Source: an uncultured Candidatus Saccharibacteria bacterium
GTDB taxonomy: Bacteria; Patescibacteriota; Saccharimonadia; Saccharimonadales; JAGQNJ01
Reading direction: 5' to 3'
NCBI GenBank assembly: GCA_964491925.1
Contig: CAZBGZ010000002.1
Span: 49,492 to 113,491, forward strand
DNA: 64,000 nucleotides
In this document: positions 50,563-60,669 of the stretch, piece by piece
Layout of the letters: every line of letters begins with the position of its first letter
Position numbering within the stretch: position 1 is the stretch's first letter
Translations under genes and position numbers: made by a program
The notes under the pieces: model-generated
What the model was told of the DNA's origin: nothing
The model's database searches: none
What the model saw: the letters and a program-made list of their open reading frames with translations, nothing else

Positions 50563-50704
50563 TGTTCAGCCCTGAGCAGATATTGTGAAAAGTAGGCGCC
50601 CTTGGGCGCGAGGATTGTTTGAGCTGAAAAACTGCTGTTAGCAGGTTTTCAGTGAGTTCCGGAGCGAGCCTACTTTTTATCAACAGATGCGTCAAGACTG
50701 AACA
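50563..50704. ncRNA. unclassified ~140-nt multi-stem element (strand undetermined)
   Basis: Closing stem TGTTCAG (50563-69)/CTGAACA (50698-704); 11-bp stem 50587-97/50668-78; 12-bp hairpin 50624-35/50641-52 with one mismatch; GC hairpin near 50596-50609. Confidence 0.3.
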
Positions 50705-50782: not shown

Positions 50783-51484
50783 TTACTTCATTTTCATGTA
50801 ATGCGCTTTGTCGGCTGGGTGTAAGCGTTCGAGACTGTAGCGCAACATTGTTCGGGGCATCGTTGGCGCGTATTTATATAGGAGTTCTTTTAGCCTAGCC
50901 TCATCTTTTTTGCCTGCTTCGCGCAGCATCCAACCTGTGGCTTTGTGCATCAGGTCTTCCTTATCATTCAACAGTATTTCTGCCAATCTGAATGTGTCAT
51001 CCAGGTCATTTTTACTTATAAAATGTGCTGTACTAACAATCGCTATTCGCCGCTCCCACATCTGTTTTGACCGCGCTAGTTTGTACAAAATCGCCCTATC
51101 TTTATCAGATAAATATTCGCCAACTATTTTGTGGCAACTAGTATCAACTATGTCCCAATTATTGATCCTGTCTGTCCTTTTTAAATACAAATCGTATAGT
51201 GATTTCCTGAGTACAGAATTTGCACGCTCTGCTTGATGTCGCATTATTATAACAGCCGCCAAGCGATGCTCATGAATCGGACTTTCCAACAGTTTTTCAA
51301 TCTCGTTAATTGGCAAACTATTATACTTTTTACATACCAACCTGGTTTGCGGTACTGTTAGCCCAATAAAAATATCGCCCTCTCCATATTGACCCTTACC
51401 AGTCTTAAAAAATCGCTGTGAATGAGCAGCCCGAACCGGGTCTTCATAACTATTAAGCTCACTCTCTATTTCTTTGGCTGTCAT
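50783..51484 (-). CDS. DNA alkylation repair protein (AlkD-like HEAT-repeat family)
   Basis: 233 aa; N-terminus ...DPVRAAHSQRFFKTGKGQYGEGDIFIGLTVPQTR and NNWDIVD motif are typical of this family. Confidence 0.78.
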   Translation of the reverse strand: MTAKEIESELNSYEDPVRAAHSQRFFKTGKGQYGEGDIFIGLTVPQTRLVCKKYNSLPINEIEKLLESPIHEHRLAAVIIMRHQAERANSVLRKSLYDLYLKRTDRINNWDIVDTSCHKIVGEYLSDKDRAILYKLARSKQMWERRIAIVSTAHFISKNDLDDTFRLAEILLNDKEDLMHKATGWMLREAGKKDEARLKELLYKYAPTMPRTMLRYSLERLHPADKAHYMKMK

Positions 51485-51510: not shown

Positions 51511-53019
51511 CTATACTACTGAATCTTCGCCGAAGTGTTTTTTCAGACGAGATCGGATTGACCCAGGGTGGCGGCCAAAAACAGAGGTGGCTTTTTTAAT
51601 ATCTATTTTTTTGCCTGATGAAAACATATCCACCAGTTTTTTGTCATCGGCGTCGTTCCATGGTTTGTAGGCATTTGGGTAGTCTTTTCGCATTTTTTTG
51701 AGCTTTTCGGACCATGTATTTTTGGTGAGTGGTTCGGGTTTAGATTTACGGACGGCTGCTTTTTCTTTTAAATCAGCAAAACGTTTGGCATCTTTTCTGG
51801 ATGCAGCCCGTAGTTTTTCGTCAATTCTAAGAGCCTCTGGACTGACTTTCAAAGCCATCTTATTCAGCCCCATTAGACTAAGTGTGTCAAAACTACGCAC
51901 CCTAGACAACGCCACATAACCCATCCCCTCAACAAACGCTTTACCGAGGTTAATTCGTGCCGCATCTAGTGTCATCCCCTGGCTTTTGTGTACTGTTATT
52001 GCCCATGCAAGCCTCAGTGGTATCTGCGCCAAACTAGCGCGTTTTTTATCACCATCACGTAGTTCCCACGAGTCTGGCAAGACAGTTATCTTACGCCCAC
52101 TCTTCAAAGTTACGATCGGAAAGTCCGTCGATTTTTCAAAGCCCGTTACCTCACCCAAAGTTCCATTAGCGTATTTTTTATCTGGGCTATTTTTTATGAA
52201 CATAACCAATGCGCCTTTTTTTAAAACTAACACCTCGTTCGCCAAACAAGCACGTTTCAATGAATCAACGTACACTTCCTTGCCGGTTGTTGACATCTTG
52301 TATCGATGTTCTTCCCCGTCAAGGTCTTGCAGTCGGTGATTATTGATACTGTCGACATCAATGTTAGTAGTGTGCAGTTCCGTTACGTCGCCGAGGTCAA
52401 CCTGATTTCGCTTTAGTAACGATTCGGCATGACTGCGACGAATATCCCCTGCTCGCAATGCTTCTAAGATATCTAGAAAATCATCATCATTTTGGCGGTG
52501 TTGTTCCTCCAGATAACAGATTACCGGGTTCAGTTCTTGCCACACGTCAGCGTGAACTACAAATTGACCTTGATCCTGTCCACCCCTTGTAACCGGCGGT
52601 AGTTGGAAAAAGTCCCCGCATAAAATTACCTGAATGCCACCAAATGGCTCATCTTTTCCTCTGACCTTGCGAGCAACTTTATCAACCATATCTAGACGAT
52701 AGTGATGAAGCATAGAAATTTCGTCGATAATCAACACATCTGTTTTAGCAATAGTATCCCTGCGACCCTTATGCATGTGATCATGAAAATTTTTTGGTAA
52801 ACTATCCAAAATCCCGATTCCACTCCAGGCATGAATCGTATTGCCACTGAGATGCGTTGCGGCCAGGCCAGTCGTGGCAGTGACTGCCACTGTTTTTCCG
52901 TCCGCCTTAGCCGCCCGAATAAATTTGTTCAGCACATATGTTTTCCCCGACCCAGCTGGACCAGTTAAAAGTGCGTTTTCGCCACTCAATAAAATTTCTA
53001 ACGCTAACGCCTGATCCAT
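51511..53019 (-). CDS. PIF1/RecD-like SF1 DNA helicase with basic C-terminal tail
   Basis: 502 aa; Walker A GPAGSGKTY, LIIDEISM (Walker B), QLPPV, ITVHKSQG motifs. The last ~90 aa are Lys-rich and HTH-like. Confidence 0.85.
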   Translation of the reverse strand: MDQALALEILLSGENALLTGPAGSGKTYVLNKFIRAAKADGKTVAVTATTGLAATHLSGNTIHAWSGIGILDSLPKNFHDHMHKGRRDTIAKTDVLIIDEISMLHHYRLDMVDKVARKVRGKDEPFGGIQVILCGDFFQLPPVTRGGQDQGQFVVHADVWQELNPVICYLEEQHRQNDDDFLDILEALRAGDIRRSHAESLLKRNQVDLGDVTELHTTNIDVDSINNHRLQDLDGEEHRYKMSTTGKEVYVDSLKRACLANEVLVLKKGALVMFIKNSPDKKYANGTLGEVTGFEKSTDFPIVTLKSGRKITVLPDSWELRDGDKKRASLAQIPLRLAWAITVHKSQGMTLDAARINLGKAFVEGMGYVALSRVRSFDTLSLMGLNKMALKVSPEALRIDEKLRAASRKDAKRFADLKEKAAVRKSKPEPLTKNTWSEKLKKMRKDYPNAYKPWNDADDKKLVDMFSSGKKIDIKKATSVFGRHPGSIRSRLKKHFGEDSVV

Positions 53020-53094
53020 AGTCTATACAGTATAGCTCGGATACAATTTTTTATTGAAAATATTGCAAGCCTGATAACGTGCAAAGATCTTGTG

Positions 53095-53307
53095 TTAGCC
53101 GTAATATTTTCGGGCGGCATCAATAAAATGATGCCAGGCCTCTATATAAACGCGGATGTAATGCTCGTCAGTACGTGTAAATGCATAGCTTTCGTTACGG
53201 TTGTCAGAGTGTTCTAGGTTATCGTACAAGTGTTTCACCTGGTCATGAGCCCGATGGACTCGGCGTTGGGCCTCGCGATATTCTCGTTCGTACTGTTTGT
53301 TAGGCAT
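53095..53307 (-). CDS. hypothetical small helical protein
   Basis: 70 aa, 5 nt downstream of the NYN gene; charged and His-rich. Confidence 0.4.
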   Translation of the reverse strand: MPNKQYEREYREAQRRVHRAHDQVKHLYDNLEHSDNRNESYAFTRTDEHYIRVYIEAWHHFIDAARKYYG

Positions 53308-53312
53308 TTGCC

Positions 53313-53936
53313 CTACCTGGCTCCTTTCCTCTTGTAATCTTTGTAGGCTAATTCCCTACGCATTTCGTCGATTCTAATTATATACTTCTCGTAAGGTTTT
53401 AACAGAGACGAATAAAATCGATTTGGTGTCATTATGTGCTTCAATCTCTCTTTGCCTGCCAGGTACTCGGCCAGACAGTAAAAGTCACCATCGCCCGATA
53501 CAATGATCGCTTTTGAGTAGTTGGGCATTTCCTTCATCGCGTAAAGCACCAATTCGGCGTCTACATTCCCCTTCACTGCTCTTTTTGCCGTTTCGGAGTG
53601 ATCATTATGATTGTGATTCTTAGAATCTTTTTTAGACTGATTAGTATGGTCAATGTGTTCAGTTGTTTGGGAAGAATCATTCATAACTACAGTCGGTTTT
53701 AGTACTACCAGATAACCTAGCTCGTGCAAGGTGTTATACATTTCTTCATGCTCACTCATATACCCAATAAACAGATAGGCCCGCGTTACACCATGCTCTT
53801 TTTGCAAATACTGATATAGCTTGCTCCAGTCCATTTTCCAACCCATTTTCTGGGTACCTAGATTTAGGTTTTGACTATCAATAAAGGCATATACGCCCTT
53901 TGCTTTTTGATGTGTTTTTCGTCGAAACGGCCTCAT
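53313..53936 (-). CDS. NYN-domain (LabA/PIN-like) protein with His/Asn-rich insertion
   Basis: 207 aa; VYAFIDSQNLNLG N-terminal Asp motif and IIVSGDGDFYCLAEYL C-terminal acidic motif. Insertion HIDHTNQSKKDSKNHNHNDH. Confidence 0.78.
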   Translation of the reverse strand: MRPFRRKTHQKAKGVYAFIDSQNLNLGTQKMGWKMDWSKLYQYLQKEHGVTRAYLFIGYMSEHEEMYNTLHELGYLVVLKPTVVMNDSSQTTEHIDHTNQSKKDSKNHNHNDHSETAKRAVKGNVDAELVLYAMKEMPNYSKAIIVSGDGDFYCLAEYLAGKERLKHIMTPNRFYSSLLKPYEKYIIRIDEMRRELAYKDYKRKGAR

Positions 53937-53967
53937 CTTGAACTAATAATAGCACTTTATGTAAACT

Positions 53968-54534
53968 TTATTTTTGTTGTCGGGCTATTAATAATACTTC
54001 CACAAAATTTGCTACGGAAATATATACCGGAAATACTATCACCGAATAAGCCAAGCTACCACCTGCCGCTATACTAAACCAAGGGGCGACTACACCGCCC
54101 CAGAAAAACAACTGAGTTTCACTTTTTGGTTCACGCCAAGTCTTTTCAAGTGTAGGCCAAAAAGCTATTGTGTCAGCCAGTATCGACAGGTGCAGCGCCA
54201 ACAGAGCGCTACCTGTTTGCCACCATGCAACAAGACTCAACACCAACAACACATAGCAAAGCAGATCATTTTTTGATAAACCACCAACCCCATGCTTCAT
54301 GGCCAAACCAAAAAGCATAACTGATGACACTATCTCCCCTATAGTTAACGCCATTGTTAAGCCAGAGCCCAAACTGTGCTGCTGCGCTAGTGTAACGATT
54401 ATTAGCAACAAAAGCATCGTCCTTGCCGCCCTTGCTGGTTTTGCCCTACCTTTTACTATGTCAATCATATATGGGATGGTTACGGCAATTATTATCAAGA
54501 ATGAAACTATTGCTAGAATATTTTGCATAAGCAT
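53968..54534 (-). CDS. integral membrane protein (about 6 TM), unknown function
   Basis: 188 aa; strongly hydrophobic. The N-terminal IPYMIDIVKGRAKP is vaguely PQ-loop-like. Confidence 0.55.
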   Translation of the reverse strand: MLMQNILAIVSFLIIIAVTIPYMIDIVKGRAKPARAARTMLLLLIIVTLAQQHSLGSGLTMALTIGEIVSSVMLFGLAMKHGVGGLSKNDLLCYVLLVLSLVAWWQTGSALLALHLSILADTIAFWPTLEKTWREPKSETQLFFWGGVVAPWFSIAAGGSLAYSVIVFPVYISVANFVEVLLIARQQK

Positions 54535-54543
54535 TTTCCCTAA

Positions 54544-54897
54544 CTATACCTTATCAGTCTTAAAAGCAGCCCACCCAGTCGCCCTATATGGGGTCACCCA
54601 TACATTAAAACTACCTGGCTTTTTTATTAATTTGACGATTTCTTCACTTATTTGACTAGCGATTCCCTTAAAATGGATTGTAGCTTCTTCAACAGAGCAG
54701 TCAGCGCCCTCAGGATTTTTGGGCCAATTGATTTCAGCGATTTCTACATGCAGTTCGGTGTGCGCATCAGACGAAGACCCACCATGATTAACTTCCAAAG
54801 TTCGAATGGTTACATCTCCTGGCTGTGGTTTTTTTCTACCATATACAGCCTCAGACGTTACTTTCTCAGCTGCTGCGCGCCAAGTTTTTATCTGCAC
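54544..54897 (-). CDS. hypothetical protein; start codon uncertain
   Basis: 117 aa from GTG 54897. A strong AAGGAG lies about 50 nt upstream and is in frame only with non-canonical ATA/ATT codons. Confidence 0.45.
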   Translation of the reverse strand: MQIKTWRAAAEKVTSEAVYGRKKPQPGDVTIRTLEVNHGGSSSDAHTELHVEIAEINWPKNPEGADCSVEEATIHFKGIASQISEEIVKLIKKPGSFNVWVTPYRATGWAAFKTDKV

Positions 54898-54996
54898 TGG
54901 CGTTTTATCCGTAAAGTGCGTAATTGTTACTTGTGCTATCGCCTAACTCCTTGATTAACACTTGTATTATCTCTAGCTTTGCCAAAAAATACAAAA

Positions 54997-55020
54997 AGTT
55001 GTCCATTTTTTCGGACAACT
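54997..55020. promoter_or_regulatory. candidate operator: perfect 8-bp inverted repeat abutting the trmB-like promoter
   Basis: AGTTGTCC-N8-GGACAACT, immediately 5' of TGATATAAT (55022-55030). Confidence 0.4.
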
Positions 55021-55021
55021 A

Positions 55022-55030
55022 TGATATAAT
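55022..55030 (+). promoter_or_regulatory. extended -10 element, leaderless-type spacing
   Basis: TGATATAAT; 6 nt to GTG at 55037. Confidence 0.5.
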
Positions 55031-55036
55031 GGGGTA

Positions 55037-55816
55037 GTGAAACAGATTGAAACCATCAAGAAGTACCTGCAGAAACTCGATATAGAACCCGAGACCACTG
55101 ATGTTTATATAGAGTTAATAAAACTAGGTCCTTCCTCTGCCCTACAGCTCGCAAAATCGACCAAAATCACTCGTACACAAATATACCGCCATTTAGAGCA
55201 TTTACAGTCCCTAGGGCTAGCTAGTGCTGAAAAGTTGAGCTATGGGACATTATTTCGTGCTCTGCCTCTAGAAAACCTCGAGGGGCCTATCGCTAATAAG
55301 GAGGCTGAAAATGCTGCTATTCGTCGTAATCTAGGTAATATGGGCGATATTCTAGCCTCTATTAGCGGTACAGGTGGGCCCAAGGCAACCATTCAGCACT
55401 ATTACGGCCAGGGTGGTTTAAAACAGGTCAACTGGAACCTTACCAAGGCTGAAAAAGAGTTCAAAGTTTTCGAGGTAGCTCACCTGTCCCACCACCTAGA
55501 CGTTGCCTTCGCACGACGCTGCCGCGAACGTTATATGGAGAAAGGACTGACTAGCTATGACTTGACCAATGCCACCACAGTCCTAGCGAAAGATCTAGAG
55601 CCTTTTAACCCATCAAAATCATTTTCGCGACACGTTGACCCCAAGGTTTTGACCATCAACTTTGAAATGTACATGTATAACGACGTCGTGACTTTGGTAG
55701 ATTACAGCAAAGACCAGCCAATGGCACTAGAAATCCACCATCCGGCGCTCAAAATGATGATGGAGCAACTCTTTGACTCCATCTGGACCACCGCAACTCC
55801 CCTAAAAATCCAATAG
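55037..55816 (+). CDS. TrmB-family transcriptional regulator
   Basis: 259 aa; N-terminal winged HTH DVYIELIKLGPSSALQLAKSTKITRTQIYRHLEHLQSLGL plus a C-terminal effector-like domain. Confidence 0.68.
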   Translation: MKQIETIKKYLQKLDIEPETTDVYIELIKLGPSSALQLAKSTKITRTQIYRHLEHLQSLGLASAEKLSYGTLFRALPLENLEGPIANKEAENAAIRRNLGNMGDILASISGTGGPKATIQHYYGQGGLKQVNWNLTKAEKEFKVFEVAHLSHHLDVAFARRCRERYMEKGLTSYDLTNATTVLAKDLEPFNPSKSFSRHVDPKVLTINFEMYMYNDVVTLVDYSKDQPMALEIHHPALKMMMEQLFDSIWTTATPLKIQ

Positions 55817-56904: not shown

Positions 56905-57276
56905 TTAGTCGCCAGGATTATAGTCTGAAAGCAGAGCATTCCAAGTCTGCGGACCAACAATTCCATCAACAGTTATGCTTTTTAGAGTTTGGAATTTCTT
57001 TACAGCTTTTTTAGTCTGCTGACCAAAAACACCATTAACAACTAGTCGTGGTTCAACGTGATAAACATTATTTAGTTTTCTCTGCAAAATACTAACACAA
57101 GGGTGTGTTGAGTTGGTTGTCATGCTTAGCATTGGCTGTCTACTCAAACATAAAGAATAGTTCCATGATACTGGTTTTGCCTTAGCAGATGCTGCTGGTG
57201 CCATTACTGCCCCAACGCTTGCTACTGATACTGCCACCATTACAAATGCACTGACTTTTTGAATTATTTTATTCAT
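56905..57276 (-). CDS. secreted peptidoglycan-binding-domain protein
   Basis: 123 aa; signal peptide ending ASA-K; LQRKLN...VNGVFGQQTKKAVKKFQ...VDGIVGPQTWNAL = PG_binding_1 pattern. AAGAGGAG SD 5 nt upstream. Confidence 0.75.
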   Translation of the reverse strand: MNKIIQKVSAFVMVAVSVASVGAVMAPAASAKAKPVSWNYSLCLSRQPMLSMTTNSTHPCVSILQRKLNNVYHVEPRLVVNGVFGQQTKKAVKKFQTLKSITVDGIVGPQTWNALLSDYNPGD

Positions 57277-57363: not shown

Positions 57364-60300
57364 CTAAATTTTAGATTTTTTTCGAGTTAGGTGTTTCCGC
57401 AAATTTGGAACGAGTTCTTGGAAGAAAATATATAGAATCGGCGTAACAAACAGTGATAAAATTCCAGAAACCAATAGTCCGCAAATTATAACTACCGATA
57501 ACGAACGATAGAATTCTGACAATACAGCAAGTGGCGCTAATGAAGCCAGAGCCATGACCTTTGTCAGCATAATGGGCCTGAATCGTACACCAGTGGCGTA
57601 GGCTATGGCATCTTTTGCTGGCATACCCTCTTTTTCTTTACGATTGGCCGCGTCTATCAGGAATATTGCCACGTTTTCTACCAGGCCCACTAGAATAATC
57701 ACACCGATTATCTCCAGGAAGCCCATCTGTCCCCCGCCCAAGTACGCGAGGCCAGGGAATATCCCTAGGAATGTCAACGGAATGGCGAATAGTATCACCA
57801 GTGGCATGCTGATGCTGTCAAAGAATATAACTAACAGAACATAGGTCAGTACGATAGCCAGTACGAGCGCCACGCCCAACTCCTGGAACGACTTATTGAT
57901 ACTGGCAACATCACCCTCAGAATACCCTTCTACCGTTAAACCATCGTTATATTTCTGCAGGTAGTTTTTGTTAAACTCATCAATCGCTAGCTTTTGAATG
58001 AGCGCCGCGTTTTGCTGGTCAGAATAGTCTTCTTTTAGCTTTGCGTTAACTACACCGATGGCTTCGCCTTCAACTTGGCGAATAGACCCAGGACTTTCTA
58101 CCTCTGCGACCGTAGCAATTTGGCCCAGACTTACTGGTTGGCCAGTCAAGGTCATCACATTTACAGATTTTATATCAGAAACTGTGTTAGGTTTGTGATT
58201 ATCGCTAGACAAGATAATTGGGATTTGCTGGTTATCAATATTTAACTTGGCTACCTGGTCCCCGTTATTCAACTGATACAGGCCAGCTAATTGCTCGCGG
58301 AGAGATATTGGGTTTACAGGATTTGTTTGCAGTTTTTTGCGGTCCAACCGCACGGAAATAAATTTGTTAGTTTGCGCTCCAGATCCGTTATCTACCTTTA
58401 TTACAGCTTTGTCCCCTGGCGAACAGTTAGGATCTATAGCGAATTTTCCATCCACGTCACATATTTGATTTAGGACTTTTGTGACCTCTAGGGCTACTTG
58501 CTTCTGCTTATCTAAATCTGCGGTTTTTATCCCGACACTAACTGGGAAGTTTGCGCTAGGTGGCCCTGCTGATGATGCGCCAATACTGATATCAAAATAT
58601 AATTTACTGGCATCTCCACTACTAACAGAATCACTAAAGTTTTTGGCTATTTTGTGAGCTGTCTGACCCGGGCGCTCGCTTGGATCGTTTAATCCAATAA
58701 AGTAGCTAACATTCCCAGCCCCCTGGCTATATATTGGGGCGACAAATCGTACATTTGGGTTTTTGATTACTTCGGCTAGTAGTTTTTTCGCACTTTCATC
58801 GGCCGAAGATGGAGAGGCTTGTGGCAATTTCGTAACGGACATTGTCAGCAACTTCCCCTCTTCAGGCTGTGCGAACTGAACAGTTTTTACCTTTCCGCTA
58901 CCCATGTAGTAGCCCGCCACAATAAATGGCACAACAACTGCAGATATAACAATGGCTAGTCTTATAAATACATTCAGGTCTAGTAGTTTTCGGTTAGTTC
59001 GAATCATCCAACGAGAGGCTCGCCACAGATTTTTCTCTTCGTCGTCAGATTTCCCCGGCTGTCTTTTGAGCATTACACTAGCCAACCAAGATAAAAATAC
59101 CAGAGGTACGATGTATGACCCAATTAGCGCTGGTATGATTGTCAGTGGTATGTAGGCAATAATGGCGCCAAACACCCCGGAGACAATTCCGAAAGGTATG
59201 AATACCAGGATAGATGTGACAACAGCAATAAACAGACCATATCCTATGTCATCTATGGCTGACAATACCGCTGCCCGACCTTTTTCGCCTTTATCAATGT
59301 ACCTTTGGATAACCTCTAAAACAACAATAGCCGGGTCGACGACCAAACCTATGACTAACACCAATGAGAACAACGTCAACGTGTTTAATTCGTTCCCCGT
59401 TGCCAGAAGTGTAATCGTAGAGAAAAAGAAACACAGTGGTATTGCAAGTGCTGCGATCACTGCAGCTCGCCAACTAACAAGTACCATCATAAATATAAAC
59501 ACCAACTGAATAGCACCAAAGGCAAACCCAATCCAACCAACGATTGGAATGCCCCACTTTTCTCCGGCCAACCCAGCGATAACTTCTTTTACTTGATCCT
59601 GATTATCCGTGTTGGTGTTATAAACCTCTACCAGTTTTAGGTTAGAAAATAATGCTTTCTGGTCTGCTGGCAGTTTTTTGAACTCTGCAGAGTTGGGATT
59701 AAAGTAGGTATCAATGACAGATTCGAGTTTTGTATTGTATGCGCTCAAGTCCGTCTTGTCATCAACATCAATGCCAAAAATAGCTGCCTTGTCAACAGAG
59801 CCTTTTTTGCCATCACGGTAGCCGACTACATCATCTGCTTGGTTTTTAAGGGCAAATTTGGTGTCGACAGAAGCTACATCAGACAGTTTCGCACTCTGAC
59901 CAGTTAGGCCGAGAATGGTCAACTGCCTGAGGTCATCCAGTGACTTCCCAGATAGTGAAAGAACTATGTTGTAGTTTTTCTCCCCGAATGTAGCATTCTC
60001 TGCAACTGGTATTTGTAATCCCCAGCTTTTTAGCTGATTTGTAACTATTTCCTGGCTGAGGCCGGCGTCGGCCATTTTCTGGGGATTCATTTTGACTACA
60101 ACTTGTTGTTTTAAATCCCCCGCCACGTTTACACTAATGACTTCCGGGTCTTGTTCTAGTCTTTTGTGCAATATATCCGTGGCCTCATATATAGATTCCA
60201 TGTCACTGCTACCCTTTTTGCTGACTAGTGCATATGAGTACTCGTCGTTGGATACTTTTGGAGATCCCACCTCTGGGGCTTGGCTGTTTTCTGGAAGACT

Positions 60301-60669
60301 GACCGATTTTACAGAAGAGTCAACTTTTGCTTTTACTGCTTCCGCATTTGCCGAATCATCTATTTGGACAACAACGCTAGAGAAGTTATCTAGACTCTGC
60401 GAGCTGTAAGATTTAACTCCGTCTATGCTTTTTATGCTGGCTTCTATCGGTTTTGTGACATCCTCTAGCACCGTGCCGGATGCTGCACCTGGGTATACTG
60501 TATTTACAGTAACAACTTTAATTTCCGGCGACGGGAAACCACTTGTGCGAAGAGCAAAAATAGATACGGCGCCAAAGGCAACCAAAGTAAATAGCGCAAC
60601 CAGCGTGATACGCGAGTGCTCTAAAAAATATTTCGCAATCCTTGTGTTTAAACTATGTCTCCTCGCCAT
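57364..60669 (-). CDS. RND-superfamily (AcrB-like) transporter permease
   Basis: 1101 aa; 12-TM topology with two large loops; N-terminal FLEHSRITLVALFTLVAFG...VYPGAS typical of the ACR_tran family. No adjacent adaptor or outer-membrane gene. Confidence 0.88.
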   Translation of the reverse strand: MARRHSLNTRIAKYFLEHSRITLVALFTLVAFGAVSIFALRTSGFPSPEIKVVTVNTVYPGAASGTVLEDVTKPIEASIKSIDGVKSYSSQSLDNFSSVVVQIDDSANAEAVKAKVDSSVKSVSLPENSQAPEVGSPKVSNDEYSYALVSKKGSSDMESIYEATDILHKRLEQDPEVISVNVAGDLKQQVVVKMNPQKMADAGLSQEIVTNQLKSWGLQIPVAENATFGEKNYNIVLSLSGKSLDDLRQLTILGLTGQSAKLSDVASVDTKFALKNQADDVVGYRDGKKGSVDKAAIFGIDVDDKTDLSAYNTKLESVIDTYFNPNSAEFKKLPADQKALFSNLKLVEVYNTNTDNQDQVKEVIAGLAGEKWGIPIVGWIGFAFGAIQLVFIFMMVLVSWRAAVIAALAIPLCFFFSTITLLATGNELNTLTLFSLVLVIGLVVDPAIVVLEVIQRYIDKGEKGRAAVLSAIDDIGYGLFIAVVTSILVFIPFGIVSGVFGAIIAYIPLTIIPALIGSYIVPLVFLSWLASVMLKRQPGKSDDEEKNLWRASRWMIRTNRKLLDLNVFIRLAIVISAVVVPFIVAGYYMGSGKVKTVQFAQPEEGKLLTMSVTKLPQASPSSADESAKKLLAEVIKNPNVRFVAPIYSQGAGNVSYFIGLNDPSERPGQTAHKIAKNFSDSVSSGDASKLYFDISIGASSAGPPSANFPVSVGIKTADLDKQKQVALEVTKVLNQICDVDGKFAIDPNCSPGDKAVIKVDNGSGAQTNKFISVRLDRKKLQTNPVNPISLREQLAGLYQLNNGDQVAKLNIDNQQIPIILSSDNHKPNTVSDIKSVNVMTLTGQPVSLGQIATVAEVESPGSIRQVEGEAIGVVNAKLKEDYSDQQNAALIQKLAIDEFNKNYLQKYNDGLTVEGYSEGDVASINKSFQELGVALVLAIVLTYVLLVIFFDSISMPLVILFAIPLTFLGIFPGLAYLGGGQMGFLEIIGVIILVGLVENVAIFLIDAANRKEKEGMPAKDAIAYATGVRFRPIMLTKVMALASLAPLAVLSEFYRSLSVVIICGLLVSGILSLFVTPILYIFFQELVPNLRKHLTRKKSKI

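Follow-up and report, generated by a model that had tools for sequence, protein, structure and literature searches.

Within a 64,000-nucleotide (nt) stretch of a contig from an uncultured Candidatus Saccharibacteria bacterium (the window, meaning the whole stretch that was analysed), four minus-strand genes lie between a divergently oriented gene for a TrmB-family regulator and a gene for a PIF1-family helicase. They encode, in order, a protein of no recognised family (p117), a seven-transmembrane (7-TM) protein that may be a transporter, a NYN-domain nuclease, and a small charged protein (p70). The four genes are residents of a variable interval that extends from the genes for an aminoacyl-tRNA synthetase (aaRS) and RecO to the cell-division (dcw) cluster, and they are not a conserved cassette. 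The region is probably a mosaic of independent units, with module A consisting of the TrmB gene, its operator, p117 and the transporter gene, and module B of the NYN, p70 and PIF1 genes. The interval is prone to rearrangement, and in the window two modules of ordinary kinds have been juxtaposed.

Evidence for this reading comes from gene order in related genomes. A scan of species-representative genomes with a NYN profile found the gene in at least 558 genomes; the best 80 loci of that scan, all selected through NYN, were analysed with up to 8 kilobases (kb) of flank per side, and tblastn, clustering and jackhmmer were applied to a comparison of 86 loci (L001 to L086), with 77 non-redundant NYN loci used for adjacency. 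In the closest relative (L001, 86% identity in NYN) TrmB is followed by an extra gene of 172 amino acids (aa) and then by p117 (137 aa), the membrane-protein gene, NYN, p70 and PIF1, and this is the only locus outside the window with the four-gene order, in this case with the extra gene. L002 (66% identity) has kept just NYN-p70-PIF1, with an AbiU-type gene ahead, and in L003 to L006 (62%) NYN stands alone between a KwaB-like gene and a sortase gene accompanied by an AlkD-like gene. Across the 86 NYN loci, TrmB and p117 are found in L001 only, and p70 in L001 and L002 only. The original prediction had treated the four genes as one system, a view that fails because their order is not conserved beyond L001.

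What does persist in these genomes is the frame. Gene maps show a stable backbone of a response regulator, RecO and an aaRS at one end and MraZ, RsmH and FtsI at the other, the downstream part of which the window shares, and a filling that varies from genome to genome, with RNase HI, a metallo-beta-lactamase-fold protein, an aldo-keto reductase, a glyoxalase, a signal peptidase, a peptide deformylase, an FMN reductase, GH1 and KwaB-like proteins among the changing genes. In the simplest genomes the interval is nearly bare, as in the arrangement aaRS-NYN-PIF1-MraZ. The two modules also occur apart from one another: the TrmB-transporter module is present with neither NYN nor PIF1 nearby in L093, L095 and L098, and in the surveyed NYN loci NYN and PIF1 mostly lie without TrmB or the transporter.

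The arrangement of probable promoters is consistent with separate expression of the modules. A TATTAT box is positioned 9 nt before the NYN ATG, identically in L001, and a TATACT box 9 nt before the PIF1 ATG, with the same box and spacing in L001, L066 and L081, so that a promoter belonging to PIF1 itself, as first proposed, is plausible. In the loci that were fetched, a TAnnnT box located 5-10 nt ahead of the start codon, with no Shine-Dalgarno sequence, is found at 64% of NYN starts (49/77), 62% of aaRS starts, 64% of GH1 starts and 42% of PIF1 starts, set against a background of ~10% per position. The same box is found at 0-20% of operon-internal starts (RsmH, the ORF at the FtsL position (c6), and RecO) and at 12% of MraZ starts, many of which carry a sequence of Shine-Dalgarno type instead. 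From these frequencies we infer leaderless-type promoters ahead of NYN and PIF1. Their own -10 boxes therefore point to at least three transcription units, of which one would serve p117 and the transporter, one would be shared by NYN and p70, and one would carry PIF1 and perhaps also the AlkD-like gene that follows it. Of the single four-gene operon that had been proposed, the co-directional layout stands, and a single transcript is rendered doubtful by the boxes of NYN and PIF1. More generally, starts in L001 to L086 fall into two classes, those with a TAnnnT box and no Shine-Dalgarno sequence (NYN, aaRS, GH1, FtsI and PIF1) and those led by a Shine-Dalgarno sequence (FMN reductase, KwaB and MraZ), which suggests that leaderless mRNAs are common in Saccharibacteria; leaderless expression of this kind would aid prediction of gene starts and operons in the phylum.

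The regulator of module A consists of an N-terminal winged helix-turn-helix (HTH) domain (PF01978 over residues 11-79, scoring 37.9 bits where the cut-off is 25.6) followed by a C-terminal domain of ~180 aa of no recognised type. Residues 80-259 have zero Pfam matches at E <= 0.1, and a profile of six orthologues compared with Protein Data Bank (PDB) chains matched HTH regions only, leaving the C-terminal domain unmatched by sequence. The orthologues nevertheless align over their full length, at 34-88% identity.

In front of the TrmB gene lies a perfect 8-bp inverted repeat, AGTTGTCC-N8-GGACAACT, ending 4 nt ahead of a TATAAT box that is itself 6 nt ahead of the TrmB GTG, and a TATACT or TATAAT-like box occupies the same place in L001, L089, L090 and L093. 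Taken alone the repeat is statistically unremarkable, as a 6+8+6 repeat of the same kind arises in 23% of shuffled sequences. Ten loci, however, extend far enough upstream of TrmB for comparison, and in 9 of them a palindrome of the form TGTCY-N8-RGACA is located at a distance of 19-28 nt from the TrmB start. The inner positions of the palindrome are C..G in five loci (the window, L001, L089, L090 and L093) and T..A in four (L095 to L098), the arms covarying symmetrically while the 8-nt spacers diverge freely. Because it is conserved, covarying and of fixed geometry, the palindrome is credible as the operator of a dimeric HTH protein, and TGTCY-N8-RGACA is thus a credible putative TrmB operator, placed to occlude both divergent promoters. 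The candidate for the second of these promoters, read by eye, consists of TTGTAT (54994-54989), a 17-nt spacer and GATAAT (54971-54966), and resembles the TTGCAT-17-TATACT arrangement found at the same position in L093, where an additional half-site lies beside the transporter's own TATACT box. A metagenome scan with TrmB contributed three loci, all cut near the TrmB start, which were used for the operator and not for the divergent genes.

The membrane protein has 63 relatives in the databases, none with a Pfam domain and apparently all on Saccharibacteria-type contigs. It had been described as a 6-TM protein; an AlphaFold2 model built from 31 sequences (predicted local distance difference test score, pLDDT, 91.9; predicted template-modelling score, pTM, 0.85) has seven helices in a 3+1+3 arrangement, at residues 2-27, 35-54, 58-81, 88-107, 110-134, 141-158 and 163-187. 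A two-fold internal repeat was recognised by eye in the alignment, with the motif IPYxxDIxKGRxxPxR after helix 1 and WPTLxKTWRxPKSET after helix 5. The best solved structures returned by Foldseek were the KDEL receptor and cystinosin (probability 1.0, template-modelling (TM) score 0.56-0.62). By this fold the protein would belong to the PQ-loop/SWEET/KDEL-receptor superfamily, with which it has in common the 3+1+3 helices, the internal duplication, and a conserved proline-containing motif with basic residues after the first and fifth helices; it differs in carrying PY or PT in place of PQ, in matching neither PF04193 nor PF03083, and in the TM scores of 0.56-0.62. Other searches were less informative, with a weak YphA (PF24124) signal in 6 of the 31 members and nothing useful from a PDB profile search with the transporter. 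Identity with KwaA was considered and rejected, there being no PADLOC match to KwaA, a PQ-loop-like fold, and no KwaB in the window.

To place this gene in a sample not biased towards NYN, eight loci were fetched through homologues of the membrane protein. In six of the eight, a TrmB-family gene (~260 aa) lies divergently upstream, either directly (L093, L095 and L098) or with one to three small genes in between (L096, L097 and L099). Homologues of p117 are positioned between TrmB and the transporter in L096 (E = 8e-45), L097 (5e-25) and L001. The proposal that TrmB acts from an operator in its promoter facing a divergent unit is borne out to the extent that the pairing with p117 and the membrane protein is conserved across Saccharibacteria. 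L096 carries a second transporter paralogue (hhalign 99.4%).

Three further families were noted around the module. An 81-aa PQ-loop/MtN3 gene of SemiSWEET type is located directly downstream of the TrmB orthologue in L099 (L099:2424-3501), and is a second, independent link of this TrmB subfamily to PQ-loop-fold membrane proteins. A protein family of ~150-170 aa is encoded between TrmB and the transporter in two lineages, L001 (L001:3485-4003) and L099 (L099:3546-3995) and has been deleted from the window; it has no match in Pfam, PADLOC or PHROGs. A gene of the PNPOx_N family (FMN-binding split barrel) adjoins the 7-TM gene at L092:4484-4942 and L093:5629-6081, and may be a clue to the transported substrate, for example a vitamin or cofactor.

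Characterised TrmB regulators respond to sugars, and in Thermococcus and Pyrococcus TrmB is associated with a divergent operon for a trehalose/maltose transporter. The Saccharibacteria module has the same PF01978 winged HTH, a palindromic operator over the promoters, a regulator gene beside a transporter gene, and a layout that suggests autoregulation. Unlike the archaeal systems, which have an ABC transporter, it has a single 7-TM protein of PQ-loop fold, no recognisable C-terminal sugar-binding domain, and a bacterial setting. Because TrmB regulators sense sugars, the fold of the transporter is of SWEET type, and a SemiSWEET gene neighbours TrmB in L099, there is a hint by analogy that the ligand could be a sugar or other small solute.

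The start of p117, which had seemed ambiguous, is explained by a 5' truncation. The p117 family is rare, with 8 representatives among 1.84 billion proteins, and all eight of these relatives are 124-137 aa long and begin MAQxxIxHF. Residue 2 of the window protein corresponds to their residue 16, leaving it short of ~15 N-terminal residues. Compared with L001, ~0.5 kb (~535 nt) is gone between the operator and p117, and pairwise alignment identifies the deleted stretch as the 172-aa gene together with the first ~13 codons of p117. It is also the fastest-evolving gene of the block, with a nonsynonymous divergence (dN) of 0.52 against L001. The window copy is a probable remnant, possibly non-functional, next to an intact transporter gene. 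An AlphaFold2 model of moderate confidence (pLDDT 76.8) depicts a small alpha+beta protein, for which Foldseek returned mostly tautomerase-fold proteins at weak scores (probability <= 0.57, TM ~0.45), so that a fold of the tautomerase superfamily is a tentative assignment. For a role as a catalytic tautomerase, which was also considered, the evidence is too weak and the copy is truncated; the homologues begin with MAQ and not with the MP that supplies the tautomerase Pro1, and the window copy is without the first strand.

Taken together, a scheme for module A can be proposed in which a dimer of the TrmB-family protein, bound to the palindrome between its own -10 box and the divergent -35 element, would repress both promoters until a small molecule that it binds, possibly a sugar, displaced it. 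A PQ-loop-fold transporter of that solute would then be expressed, along with p117 in genomes where the latter is intact; in the window, p117 has lost its 5' end to the ~0.5-kb deletion, which also removed the 172-aa gene.

Module B centres on the NYN gene, whose product matches PF01936 at 45.6 bits (cut-off 24.2) and has more than 8000 homologues. An identical protein was looked for in the assembly index, with zero matches. The best 120 of these are at least 56% identical, the named ones belong to Candidatus Saccharibacteria or Saccharimonadales, and no relative was found in phage genomes; NYN is a widespread, vertically inherited Saccharibacteria family. Absence of the catalytic aspartates would have spoken against the original prediction, and residues D20, D126, D149 and D151 are present and invariant in 24 sequences spanning 56-87% identity. 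They correspond to the four acidic positions at which NYN domains are predicted to coordinate a catalytic metal (PMC5499597). With a profile of the 24 members matching PDB 2QIP at 3.9e-8, the protein is predicted to be a metal-dependent endonuclease acting on single-stranded nucleic acid. The His/Asn insertion that had been singled out as odd (HIDHTNQSKKDSKNHNHNDH, residues 94-113) falls in a hydrophilic loop flanked by two conserved elements, VLKPT and KGNxD. Each of the 24 members has its own length and sequence of this loop, which 2QIP lacks; judged from the alignment, the insertion is variation found throughout the family and not a peculiarity of the window gene.

In its Pfam score above cut-off, its four acidic residues, its match to 2QIP (VPA0982) and its single domain of ~200 aa, the protein resembles the LabA/COG1432 group of NYN proteins, which includes Synechococcus LabA. 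The window subfamily differs from that group in being specific to Saccharibacteria and in possessing the variable loop and basic N- and C-terminal tails. It also has PIF1 as a frequent neighbour, an association that goes unmentioned in a survey of the PIN superfamily, in which genomic context linked bacterial NYN genes to tRNA and rRNA maturation (PMC5499597).

The helicase matches PF05970 (126.5 bits) and PF21530, the 2B domain (30.4 bits), and is by its sequence a true PIF1, with E = 7e-74 against the human PIF1 helicase domain and 1e-47 to 1e-46 against chains deposited as 'PIF1 helicase' or 'Pif1 helicase'. Read by eye, the translation also matches the Pif1 signature motif located between helicase motifs II and III. 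The three domain calls of the original prediction, NYN, PIF1 and TrmB, are thereby upheld by Pfam. Beyond the match to solved PIF1 structures extends a basic C-terminal region of ~95 residues (residues ~407-502, window 51511-51800), to which an HTH-like domain is annotated in the apparent orthologue of Southlakia epibionticum, and which is replaced by an HRDC domain in the PIF1 genes of L092 and L094. KwaB-like DUF4868 genes (PADLOC KwaB, 6e-21) lie directly upstream of PIF1 in many Saccharibacteria, with such pairs in L017, L031, L052, L053, L065, L083, L076 and L094 (for example L094:379-3010) and no obvious KwaA partner.

The observation that a nuclease gene lies beside a helicase gene holds in that NYN and PIF1 are recurrent neighbours; the defence or stress-island meaning attached to it does not. 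PIF1 is found on the same strand as NYN and within 8 kb in 41 of the 77 non-redundant loci. When the count is restricted to the 50 loci flanked by 5 kb or more at each end, PIF1 is within 8 kb in 30, adjacent in 16, and absent from that distance in 20. Of the 41 loci that have both genes, 23 show them directly adjacent, in the order NYN-PIF1 in 14 and PIF1-NYN in 9 and separated by 17-252 nt, and the side of PIF1 relative to NYN changes repeatedly on a neighbour-joining tree of NYN. The linkage is above chance, and is also to be expected of two old residents of one short interval.

The p70 gene is confined to one clade. A word-indexed search for homologues gave one match, and local jackhmmer added L002 only. 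Against L001, dN is 0.04 with a saturated synonymous divergence (dS) of ~1.9, and the resulting dN/dS of ~0.02 indicates that p70 is a real gene. It is separated from NYN by 5 nt in the window, and in L002 the two reading frames share 4 nt at the NYN stop, for which reason p70 is probably translated from the NYN transcript. Expression of module B might accordingly proceed with NYN under its own leaderless-type promoter and p70 on the same transcript, while PIF1, followed by the AlkD-like glycosylase gene, would use a promoter of its own; a 5'-3' PIF1 could then unwind a duplex, an RNA-DNA hybrid or a flap, and NYN could cut the exposed single strand. For the two modules together, what has been observed comprises gene content and its conservation, covariation in the operator, folds, the intact catalytic residues and the lack of defence or phage signatures; the repression logic, the ligand, the substrates of the transporter and of the nuclease, and any physical cooperation between NYN, PIF1 and p70 are inferred.

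A number of observations weigh against the division into two modules and against the roles proposed for them. No terminator-like site is present in the gaps from p117 through the AlkD-like gene, making read-through possible, and the promoter calls combine by-eye reading of consensus boxes with conservation and go unreported by a standard sigma-70 scan, whose sites were no commoner than in shuffled sequences and fell in none of the intergenic gaps. In 8 loci NYN directly adjoins the 7-TM gene, with each of the two orders represented, a possible link between the modules, in a count that covers 17 loci of which 12 were selected through NYN. As for function, a sugar-binding domain is not recognisable in TrmB by sequence (Pfam or PDB profile), the Foldseek E-values for the transporter are only ~0.03, and none of the 31 membrane-protein members matches PF04193 (PQ-loop) or PF03083 (MtN3/SWEET) at E <= 1. 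The adjacency of NYN and PIF1 might reflect just the shared interval, the two genes being ~165 kb apart in S. epibionticum. In addition, nuclease assays had been made for none of the LabA-type NYN proteins up to the time of the PIN-superfamily survey (PMC5499597). The lack of terminator-like sites and the NYN/7-TM adjacency also favour a different account, in which one TrmB-controlled operon serves one purpose, for instance the scavenging of host-derived nucleic acids or nucleosides, with the transporter importing products, NYN and PIF1 processing nucleic acids, and p70 and p117 as accessories. Such an operon would fit the co-directional genes, which are separated by 9, 31, 5, 75 and 26 nt and have their first terminator-like site past the AlkD-like gene, the involvement of both transporter subfamilies in the NYN/7-TM adjacency, and the distance of 2.5-3.2 kb between NYN and the TrmB-transporter module in L097 and L099. 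It is quite unlikely, however, as each set of genes is found elsewhere without the other, NYN and PIF1 have -10 boxes of their own, and residence in a shared variable interval inflates co-location.

Within module B, NYN and PIF1 may be functionally unrelated, NYN serving in RNA processing or turnover and PIF1 in DNA replication or repair, and neighbours only as old residents of the aaRS-dcw interval. To this account we assign a likelihood a little short of even. The bare aaRS-NYN-PIF1-MraZ interval of the simplest genomes could make the adjacency ancestral, the 20 fully flanked loci without PIF1 agree with it, and distant NYN homologues on rhizobial replicons have no helicase neighbour. The tRNA and rRNA maturation context of bacterial NYN genes points the same way (PMC5499597), as does the ~165-kb distance between the two genes in the cultivated Saccharibacterium S. 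epibionticum. The genes of that organism are presumed orthologues, judged by their size, their domains and their being the only candidates. Its sole NYN gene, SEML1_0084 (203 aa), is flagged as belonging to a core, Patescibacteria-enriched family and is non-essential by transposon sequencing (Tn-seq) at all three time points, and its PIF1 gene, SEML1_0264 (K15255), is likewise non-essential and sits in an RNase HI ... GH1 ... YvcK interval (PMC10633639). Set against mere co-residence are the adjacency in both orders, the short gaps, the repeated switching of order across the tree, and the frequency of direct adjacency in loci that have both genes, in spite of an interval that is often 5-12 genes long. 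These features leave functional cooperation of NYN and PIF1 a possibility, somewhat less likely than mere neighbourhood. Partnerships of a nuclease with an SF1B helicase are familiar from eukaryotic Pif1, which works with Dna2 and FEN1 in flap processing, and from RecD with RecB. The present pair is similar in that a gene for a nuclease of PIN-superfamily fold lies beside one for a 5'-3' SF1B helicase, in a neighbourhood that in relatives also holds RecO, RNase HI and AlkD. It differs in that there is no fusion and the two genes are separate in many genomes, in that both are dispensable in S. epibionticum co-culture, and in that NYN proteins are generally predicted to be RNases and not flap endonucleases; the literature searches returned no paper linking NYN with PIF1 in Saccharibacteria. 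The stronger proposal, a dedicated Saccharibacteria machine of NYN and PIF1 with p70 as an extra subunit and a functional reason for the juxtaposed transporter, is unlikely. If true, the machine might process host-derived or imported nucleic acids, RNA-DNA hybrids or flaps in nucleotide-auxotrophic epibionts, and the juxtaposition would be a link between nucleic-acid breakdown and solute uptake. A new system for anti-phage defence or stress, or a toxin-antitoxin pair formed by NYN and p70, is very improbable. In favour of such a reading, the same interval elsewhere holds AbiU (L002) and KwaB-like genes (~20 loci), PIN-like nucleases are common toxins, and p70 is a small charged protein whose gene is tightly coupled to that of NYN. 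But PADLOC-DB 2.0 returned generic matches only, with no system-level match (for NYN, a match of 70 residues at 2.4e-5; for the helicase core, matches with PDC-S68 and RecD-like models), there were no PHROGs or phage matches, the four-gene order is not conserved, and p70 accompanies NYN only in L001, L002 and the window among the 77 non-redundant loci, downstream and not upstream of it. Moreover, NYN is found in at least 558 species genomes, belongs to a 'core, Patescibacteria-enriched' family, and has an apparent orthologue in S. epibionticum that tolerates transposon insertions (PMC10633639). The defence and toxin-antitoxin readings were therefore rejected on the distribution, PADLOC, PHROGs and phage data, together with the non-essentiality of both genes, and the earlier suggestions of a defence or stress island and of a nuclease with a small partner go with them.

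The outcome is thus mainly a correction, in that the locus should not count as the discovery of a defence island. New, in the sense of previously unannotated, are the family of 7-TM proteins with PQ-loop fold, a subfamily of TrmB proteins for which a candidate operator has been defined, the rare p117 family and the orphan 70-aa protein, in a group of bacteria in which most genes are uncharacterised. Three testable results of modest weight are the operator TGTCY-N8-RGACA of the TrmB-like subfamily with its likely target, the transporter family, which may bear on uptake by auxotrophic epibionts, and the linkage of NYN and PIF1, which has been quantified and is incomplete. In L002, an AbiU-type abortive-infection gene (L002:3301-4983; PADLOC 1e-63, Pfam AIPR) is located immediately upstream of NYN, and the aaRS-dcw interval is therefore a spot for integration of defence genes in some genomes.

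The positions of the genes and regulatory features are collected in Table 1. The ORFs with their coordinates, the perfect repeat and the gaps of 9, 31 and 5 nt between p117, the membrane protein, NYN and p70 are all as originally described, and p70 and PIF1 are separated by 75 nt. For p117, the membrane protein and p70 there were zero matches in Pfam, NCBIfam, PADLOC and PHROGs.

Table 1. Genes and predicted regulatory features of the region (window positions).
Feature	Position	Strand	Remarks
p117	54544-54897	minus	GTG start; ORF confirmed
7-TM membrane protein, 188 aa	53968-54534	minus	ORF confirmed; putative TrmB-regulated transporter
NYN, 207 aa	53313-53936	minus	LabA/COG1432-type, PIN-like; predicted metal-dependent endonuclease
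p70, 70 aa, charged	53095-53307	minus	clade-specific; between NYN and PIF1
PIF1-family SF1B helicase, 502 aa	51511-53019	minus	Pfam PIF1 and Pif1 2B domain
TrmB-family regulator, 259 aa	55037-55816	plus	GTG start; Pfam PF01978
AlkD-like DNA alkylation repair protein	50783-51484	minus	Pfam PF08713, 212 bits; 26 nt downstream of PIF1
Putative TrmB operator, inverted repeat	54997-55020		conserved core TGTCY-N8-RGACA at 55000-55017
TATAAT -10 box of TrmB	55025-55030	plus	leaderless-type promoter, predicted from sequence
Putative divergent promoter of p117 and transporter	54966-54994	minus	abuts operator; predicted
Deletion scar, ~61 nt	54904-54964	minus	from alignment of window with L001 and L001 ORFs
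TATTAT -10-like box of NYN	53946-53951	minus	probable NYN promoter, leaderless type; predicted
NYN variable low-complexity loop, residues 84-120	53577-53687	minus	includes HIDHTNQSKKDSKNHNHNDH
TATACT -10-like box of PIF1	53029-53034	minus	probable PIF1 promoter; predicted
Terminator-like hairpin	50632-50644	minus	after AlkD-like gene; first non-coding one downstream of the array

Beyond PIF1 the minus strand continues with the AlkD-like gene, a peptidase S51 gene, a SnoaL-like gene, a family-1 glycosidase gene, MraZ, RsmH, a 116-aa ORF and FtsI. The order MraZ-RsmH-FtsI places the locus just upstream of the dcw cluster, and the 116-aa ORF, which has no family match, occupies the position expected of FtsL. 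The AlkD-like gene recurs in the same interval and is near NYN in 12 loci. An Rfam search of the window returned two tRNAs only, with zero matches in the region of interest. On the other side, two genes past TrmB, lies an 1101-aa gene for an AcrB/RND-family transporter (57364-60669), adjoined by a gene for a small peptidoglycan-binding protein (56905-57276).

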